A stretch of 64,000 bases of DNA from Candidatus Dojkabacteria bacterium (GTDB lineage Bacteria > Patescibacteriota > Dojkabacteria > J137): contig JBDTVZ010000002.1 of assembly GCA_040006935.1 (NCBI GenBank), forward strand, positions 43,904-107,903. The letters run 5' to 3'. Made by a program: the position numbers and the translations under genes. Of the stretch, positions 42,451 to 43,344 are shown in pieces. The notes beneath the pieces were generated by a model that worked only from the letters and a program-made list of their open reading frames with translations, searched no databases and had not been told where the DNA came from. The stretch's first letter is position 1. Every line of letters begins with the position of its first letter.

Positions 42451-43344
42451 TTACTTTTCAAGGTCGTCCACGATATCCCTCAACTCCGCGGCTTTTTCGA
42501 ATTCAAGCATATCCGCAAAAATTTGCATTTGCATTTTTAATTCCTTAACAAACTTCCCTCGTTCCTTTTTTGGCATTGCTTTATAGCTTTCCGCAAGTTT
42601 TAACAAATCCTTTCCTTTCACATCTTTTTCCTCTTCCTTTGCAAATTTATTTAGTTGGTCCGTAATTGCTTTTTTAATAGTTGTTGGAGTAATTCCATGT
42701 TCAGTATTATATTTTTCCTGAACTGCTCTTCGTCTTCTAGTTTCAGATATTGCTGCATACATCGAATCCGTAATTTTATCCGCGTACATTAACACTCGGC
42801 CTTCGGAATGCCTTGCTGCTCTACCAATTGTTTGAATCAAGCTCGTTTGTGACCGTAAAAAACCTTCTTTATCCGCATCTAGTATTGCGACTAACGAAAC
42901 TTCTGGCAAATCTAAACCTTCTCTTAGTAAATTAATTCCAACCAAGACATCGTATTCTCCAAGTCTTAAACTCTTTAAAATCTGAACTCTTTCGATTGTA
43001 TCGATATCGGAATGAATATATTTACTTTTTACATTTCGTTCGACTAAGAAATCCGAAAGCTCTTCCGACATTCTTTTTGTTAAAGTTGTTACTAAAACTC
43101 TTTGGCCTTTTTTAATAGTTTTATCTATTTCTAGCATTAAATCCTGAACCTGTGTTCGTTCCCAGTAAGCTTCTGCCAGAATTGGCATATCTTTCAATCC
43201 ACGATCTTCTAAACTTTTTTTAAGTTGTAAAAAAGCATCTGGTAAAGTTGGACGAACTTCAATATTAGGATCTAATAACCCTGTAGGACGGATAATTTGG
43301 TAAACAATACCTTCGTAATTTTCTGGAAGTTTAAATTTGGACAT
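42451..43344 (-). pseudogene. uvrB: uvrB 3' fragment (C-terminal ~300 aa of excinuclease ABC subunit B only)
   Basis: The ORF begins at [20 protein letters not shown], matching the UvrB segment that starts roughly 400 residues into full-length UvrB (position from memory). It runs through helicase motifs V/VI (TIGRAARH) to the C-terminal UvrB/UvrC coiled-coil. The N-terminal half is absent and replaced by repeats. Confidence 0.6.

Follow-up and report, generated by a model that had tools for sequence, protein, structure and literature searches.

UvrB is regarded as a single-chain helicase-like ATPase whose ATP site and DNA clamp lie between two covalently linked RecA-like domains. Naturally split genes are known, such as the split reverse gyrase and other genes of Nanoarchaeum equitans and the rpoC1/rpoC2 genes of cyanobacteria, while split-intein enzymes such as the cyanobacterial DnaE are encoded by two genes and yield one enzyme. 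No SF2 ATPase site is known to arise between two RecA domains that come from separate genes. A literature search found no description of a split uvrB, nor anything relevant on split genes in the Candidate Phyla Radiation or on the KatS3mg assemblies. Here, a uvrB gene lacking its 5′ half is described in a 64-kb stretch of Candidatus Dojkabacteria DNA (the whole stretch analysed, hereafter the window).

The gene occupies positions 42451..43344 of the window on the minus strand. It starts with an ATG and encodes a 297-aa protein composed of the RecA-like domain 3 (helicase domain 2), the UvrB domain, and the UVR coiled coil. The initial annotation had taken it for the C-terminal half of uvrB starting near residue 400. 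This was borne out by tblastn, in which residues 396-665 of E. coli UvrB (which served as a probe only) matched 43326-42460 with 49.5% identity (E 3e-74). The NCBIfam UvrB equivalogs TIGR00631 and NF003673 gave 344.1 and 339.9 bits, respectively, and did not reach their cut-offs of 743 and 750.1; the match covers only the last third of the profile (positions ~425-657, or ~426-651 of 653 in TIGR00631). An in-frame TGA (43357..43359, minus strand) lies five codons 5′ of the ATG, and thus the reading frame cannot be longer upstream.

Pfam found Helicase_C at residues 73-179 (75.8 bits), the UvrB domain PF12344 at residues 186-227 (79.2 bits), and the UVR motif PF02151 at residues 264-290 (20.9 bits, marginally under the cut-off of 21.5). 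Taking Helicase_C together with the invariant columns and Foldseek, the RecA-like domain 3 with helicase motifs IV-VI, including QxxGRAAR, is placed at residues 64-190 (43155..42775, minus strand). The UVR (UvrB/UvrC) coiled-coil motif is encoded by 42475..42555 on the same strand and corresponds to residues 631-657 of 2D7D, with the match running to residue 657. Its MxEFExAAxxRD signature is conserved, and PF02151 is precomputed in most of the family members. Thus, the protein has the RecA-like domain 3 with motifs IV-VI and PF12344, as well as the C-terminal UVR coiled coil (the UvrC-binding domain 4), and the earlier statement that helicase domain 2 and the UvrC-interaction coiled coil are kept holds. 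The N-terminal ATPase half, which comprises domain 1a with Walker A/B, the beta-hairpin, and domains 2 and 1b, is missing from the chain, also as first noted. By sequence and fold, the 297-aa protein is a UvrB; by architecture, it departs from UvrB in two defining respects, since its score over the full profile is too low and no N-terminal ATPase half belongs to the chain.

Compared with canonical single-chain UvrBs (TIGR00631/PRK05298; structures 2D7D, 1D9Z, 1T5L, and 6O8E), the Dojkabacteria protein is 49-58% identical over domain 3, the UvrB domain, and the UVR motif, and has all of the helicase motifs IV-VI and the RPTGLLDP hinge. An AF2 model built with the family alignment matched UvrB structures in Foldseek with a probability of 1.0 and an rmsd of 2.0-2.8 Å over ~206-219 columns. 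In contrast to the canonical protein, it lacks everything equivalent to residues 1-395 (domains 1a/2/1b with Walker A/B, the beta-hairpin, and the UvrA-binding domain) and has two peculiarities near its N-terminus.

One is the N-terminal tail. The family protein begins directly after helicase motif III of full-length UvrB, that is, between VSAT and the following P. The segment after motif III (SATPxxYE in full-length UvrBs) is kept in an equivalent form that is 6 aa shorter than in full-length UvrBs. It forms, together with the hinge, the family-specific LPxNYxGIVYQII-RPTGLLDP stretch at residues 6-26 (43267..43329, minus strand). In 101 family members, 17 of its 21 columns are at least 90% conserved and the mean majority frequency is 0.91, so that the tail is as conserved as the RecA core, while the equivalent segment in generic UvrBs is mostly variable (consensus PGxYExxxxxxxVEQ). 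Residues 403-426 of 2D7D align to the tail region, which I take to be the last segment of UvrB domain 1a, as the boundary is drawn in the B. caldotenax structure. Residues 1-26 have no secondary structure in the AF2 model.

The other is a family-specific insertion of 29 aa between EVRP(S/T) and Q(V/I)xDL (residues 33-61; 43162..43248, minus strand). It is missing from all 11 full-length UvrBs aligned, and its length is the same in 109 of 109 measurable family members. It appears to be structured: the pLDDT block means are 94-97 over residues 31-70, which span the insertion, and helices are predicted at residues 35-47 and 54-57.

A search of 1.84 billion representative proteins placed these peculiarities in a wider context. 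The whole family is found there as one representative (P0100, 401 bits), and no other UvrB exceeds 268 bits, apart from P0121 (763 aa), a circularly repeated assembly artefact of an ordinary uvrB. With the exception of P0135 and P0136, the other UvrBs align only from residue ~41-65 of the query onward, and the short matches are heterogeneous fragments. No unsplit UvrB carrying the 29-aa insertion was found among the 1.84 billion representatives, and thus the split and the insertion occur only together. P0135 (401 aa, partial) and P0136 (727 aa, full-length) are unrelated UvrBs in which this loop holds other insertions, 28-44 aa long, directly behind the RP(V/I) downstream of the RPTGL(L/V)DP hinge, which suggests that the loop tolerates insertions. 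However, these insertions are unrelated in sequence to that of the Dojkabacteria protein and P0136 is unsplit; only the Dojkabacteria family has both the insertion and the split.

Is the short gene a relic? The initial annotation had offered a decaying NER gene in a reduced genome as one of two readings, by which the gene would be what is left of a uvrB without its 5′ half. The lack of an N-terminal half in the window and the score under the UvrB equivalog cut-off would fit that reading. It fails on the family as a whole. In a homolog search of a 5.8-billion-protein database, every one of the best 120 protein clusters is 283-329 aa in length and 62-88% identical to the ORF, and the organism, where named, is Candidatus Dojkabacteria or Patescibacteria ("Patescibacteria group"). 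The database sources call these proteins "UvrB/UvrC motif-containing protein", "hypothetical protein", "UvrABC system protein B", or "excinuclease ABC subunit B". The protein starts 14-20 aa before RPTGLLDP in 100 of 109 measurable members, usually with 1-8 variable residues before the UvrB-homologous sequence. The same start is found in more than 100 clusters that differ in up to 38% of their amino acids.

Selection on the gene also speaks against decay. Among six orthologs whose DNA was compared, synonymous sites are saturated (pS 0.65-0.79) and pN is only 0.12-0.26, with dN/dS at or below 0.21 wherever dS could be estimated. Across 101 aligned family members, helicase motifs V and VI, including GRAAR, do not vary, and conservation is at least 90% at the key positions of the UVR coiled coil. 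A pseudogene would be expected to have a broken frame, relaxed selection, and erratic ends; here, the frame is intact, pN is far below pS, and start and length are uniform. Since synonymous sites are saturated at low pN, the motifs are invariant, and the form is conserved, decay is ruled out, and a pseudogene must be considered very improbable. As judged from these sequence comparisons, the stand-alone C-terminal half of UvrB is a conserved protein throughout Candidatus Dojkabacteria and not a decaying repair gene. The other of the two readings, a split gene, would require the same break point across the lineage and a fragment under purifying selection, and both were found.

The gene neighbourhood gives a consistent picture. 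The neighbours of the C-terminal half are fairly conserved and include mnmA, ssb, spoU, PCMT, and RF-1. In four of the related loci, its stop codon region overlaps the start of mnmA by 4 nt (L084 10885-10888, L147 6653-6656, L148 8740-8743, and L149 1097-1100). Judging by sequence, the overlap and the conserved neighbourhood are as would be expected of an expressed gene. A promoter-like site with an extended -10 element (GTGAGA-16-TATAAT with TG, that is, TGnTATAAT) lies at 43351..43378 on the minus strand and stops 6 nt short of the ATG. It is a match to the consensus and no more; if used, the site predicts a nearly leaderless mRNA for the uvrB C-terminal half, with a 5′ end near 43344. Just upstream of the gene lies a small hydrophobic ORF of 62-64 aa (43458-43646 on the minus strand of the window; 9704-9898 in the syntenic locus L096), which is absent in other genomic contexts.

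The gene order around the C-terminal half differs between the window and L096. A gene for an 836-aa ATPase resembling HerA/TrwB (VirD4-type coupling protein) lies at 38694-41204 on the minus strand, 1.2 kb downstream of the C-terminal half, and no such gene is in the Pfam list of L096. Elsewhere in the window, three large ORFs have no Pfam match at E<=1e-5 (27993-30602, 869 aa; 30658-32214, 518 aa; 58264-60888, 874 aa). The first of them contains GC-rich, proline-rich tracts at 28241-29274. In addition, about five tandem repeats of a 15-nt unit, GA(G/T)ACGCATAATC(C/T)(A/T), were found at 21032-21106, inside the span of an ORF at 20699-21982. Rfam and tRNA scans of the 64-kb window were empty.

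Repeats around the gene had been pointed out in the initial annotation, together with nested palindromes at 43362-43429 that are not uvrB sequence, and both are real. Between the upstream 62-aa ORF and the uvrB C-terminal half, there is a nested GC-rich hairpin (43362..43429, minus strand; -35.1 kcal/mol, z -2.4) with the outer arms CCTCACCC/GGGTGAGG and the inner arms CCCTCTCCA/TGGAGAGGG. Moreover, a 24-nt palindromic core, CCTGCCTGACTGCGTACGCAGGCA, has three copies round the gene, starting at 42121 (+), 42364 (-), and 43750 (+), with 0 expected by chance. The first two (cores 42121-42144 and 42364-42387) belong to two inverted copies of a GC-rich palindromic module at 42107..42401, in the 442-nt spacer 3′ of the gene, and the third copy of the module has its core at 43750-43773.

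Such elements are spread over the window. Its GC content is 33.7%, and about a dozen short islands of at least 60% GC lie outside the listed ORFs, among them 3595-3685, 9004-9061, 9721-9791, 10803-10853, 34351-34405, 42107-42171, 42332-42401, 43355-43431, 43737-43792, and 48908-48967. Those checked are palindromic, and several of them share motifs such as CCTGCC…GCAGG and CCCTC…GAGGG. In a REP/MITE-like manner, the spacers at 38.3-38.7, 41.4-41.55, 42.1-42.4, and 43.75 kb carry common sequence modules in shuffled arrangements.

Have these repeats made the short gene? It might be an assembly artefact or a recent rearrangement at the palindromes in this genome only, or the repeats might act as recombination sites that rejoin the gene. 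GC-rich palindromes on both sides, modules shared with nearby spacers, and a local gene order unlike that of L096 could be read in this way. However, the N-terminus is the same in independent assemblies, which include contigs of 0.8-1.2 Mb and the 862-kb record AP024679.1, and a misassembly at the repeat, which the initial annotation had named as a possible refutation, is excluded. The syntenic ortholog L096 has the same gene start without the upstream hairpin, and the 24-nt core is in none of the 97 fetched loci, while similar hairpins lie in about a dozen other spacers of the window. An artefact or rearrangement of this kind is therefore extremely improbable. Since the hairpins are a window-wide class and L096 has the same start without one, the repeats are a property of the spacers of this genome and incidental to the uvrB split.

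Where is the N-terminal half? No match to UvrB residues 1-395 was found in the 64-kb window by tblastn with E. coli UvrB, nor at E<=10 with an N-half HMM made from 73 full-length UvrBs. The two methods likewise found no N-terminal half in 16 related loci. Within 10 kb of the C-terminal half, none was present in the 25 related loci checked; their gene neighbourhoods are of about 7 kinds, and contigs of 0.1-1.1 Mb are among them. No ResIII/UvrB_inter gene was present at this distance in ten family loci (contigs up to 1.1 Mb). Since the neighbourhood of the C-terminal half is fairly conserved, the N-terminal half is unlikely to turn up in more flanks. Neither uvrA nor uvrC was found among the scanned ORFs of the window or in the Pfam lists of the fetched relatives. 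Thus, of the two readings offered initially, the split gene is the better one with regard to the conserved break and the selection, while its N-terminal piece was not located in the 64 kb or the 25 loci.

Larger scans returned the C-terminal half alone or ordinary genes. A scan of bacterial contigs with the C-terminal half gave one close relative (L002) and 79 ordinary uvrB loci among the matches listed. A metagenome scan with insertion-specific peptides gave 9 loci, eight with the C-terminal half alone and one chance match (L095). An IMG/VR scan with the N-half alignment gave ordinary uvrB genes and one provirus boundary, and nothing else. As controls, uvrB was one contiguous gene in 73 other bacterial loci obtained with the C-terminal-half scan, and the best 120 matches to the N-terminal half of a Saccharibacteria UvrB were all full-length (655-661 aa, at least 88% identical). 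With a UvrB consensus as the query, the family members ranked below all 74 generic UvrBs.

Some uvrB sequences met in these scans may be mentioned for themselves. L094 is a chimeric contig in which an AT-rich uvrB fragment is joined at residue ~130 to GC-rich unrelated DNA. In L139, an IMG/VR provirus contig with a GC content of 0.55, the uvrB frame (16-1248) passes into phage-like sequence right after "…GQTVYLS", at helicase motif III. This is the same point as the Dojkabacteria split, and a prophage may have integrated in uvrB there. L133-L137 and L141, which are viral-classed IMG/VR contigs of up to 184 kb, have a divergent full-length uvrB whose product is 43-53% identical to E. coli UvrB; the GC content of L141 is 25%.

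Two rival explanations bear on the missing half. In the first, the genome would also have a canonical full-length uvrB at another place, and the short protein would be its truncated paralog. The homolog evidence consists of the best 120 matches only, which leaves some room for such a gene. On the other hand, the largest contigs with the short gene are 0.8-1.2 Mb, so the genomes appear small and a redundant copy is unlikely to be kept. The canonical motifs are strictly kept under strong purifying selection without divergence, and no full-length relative of the family above the level of generic UvrBs exists among the 1.84 billion representatives. Thus, a truncated paralog is quite improbable.

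In the second, the protein would be a free-standing C-terminal module in a genome without any UvrB N-terminal half. It would work with a new partner, namely another RecA1-type ATPase, or would have taken on a new function, for instance in tethering or regulating UvrC. This would explain the failure to find an N-terminal half in the window and in the 10 kb around the C-terminal half of the 25 related loci, and the novel tail and insertion could serve the new partner. It is hard to reconcile with the invariance of all canonical motifs of UvrB domain 3, including the motif VI arginines, whose role presupposes a Walker A/B domain. Conservation is also among the highest in RPTGLLDP, the hinge, and in the stretch that matches the end of domain 1a, and models of defence-system helicases match only generically (33 bits or less, against 344 bits for UvrB). 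A free-standing module is thus unlikely. By the same token, it is doubtful that Dojkabacteria lack any UvrB N-terminal half and that their RecA2+UVR protein works with another ATPase or brings in UvrC by a new route.

A two-piece UvrB is the reading I prefer. The ORF is probably a working gene whose product is the C-terminal subunit of a UvrB made in two pieces and found throughout the Candidatus Dojkabacteria (WS6) lineage. This is because the hinge and the arginines of motif VI would be meaningless without a Walker A/B domain opposite them, and because the tail is newly conserved and the insertion is only found together with the split. The ancestral uvrB would have been cut right after helicase motif III, between SAT and P. 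The C-terminal half would supply the hinge, the second RecA-like domain, with motifs IV-VI and the arginine fingers needed for a complete ATP site, and the UvrB domain, while its UVR coiled coil would recruit UvrC. An unlinked gene for the N-terminal subunit, presumably elsewhere in the genome, would supply domains 1a/2/1b with Walker A/B, the beta-hairpin, and the UvrA-binding domain. The two subunits would then associate non-covalently. It is plausible, and likely, that the conserved new tail and the structured 29-aa insertion serve for docking, in place of the covalent link that was lost.

The halves might instead be joined after translation, by protein trans-splicing with a split intein or by other means; split inteins are known to let two genes specify one enzyme. 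However, usually only 1-8 residues precede the UvrB homology, too few for an IntC segment of ~35 aa, and Pfam found no intein or Hint domain. The junction of the Dojkabacteria protein thus differs from that of the split-intein DnaE in having no intein sequence, and a joining of this kind has a negligible probability. Taken together with the pseudogene and the repeat artefact or rearrangement, it is contradicted by the data, and the three combined still amount to very little. A two-piece UvrB would resemble the splits of Nanoarchaeum equitans and rpoC1/rpoC2 in that an ancestral single enzyme comes from two ORFs that are not linked, with conserved fragments and a small host genome. It would differ from them in the site of the cut, which lies between the RecA-like domains of one SF2 ATPase core, so that the ATP site would span two polypeptides.

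For annotation, the gene scores below the cut-off of the UvrB models and the names of the family vary, and thus calls of the presence or absence of excision repair in these bacteria depend on the annotation used. The interest of the family would grow if the N-terminal half were shown to exist and to assemble with the C-terminal half, and even more so if it were shown to be absent. If it is truly absent, Dojkabacteria would have a rewired excision-repair machine. If the two-piece reading is true, they would have a natural heterodimeric UvrB, cut exactly between its RecA-like domains, in which the tail and the insertion co-occur with the cut. Such a protein would be a ready system for studying how the coupling of domains drives the verification of damage, and a template on which split helicases could be engineered.
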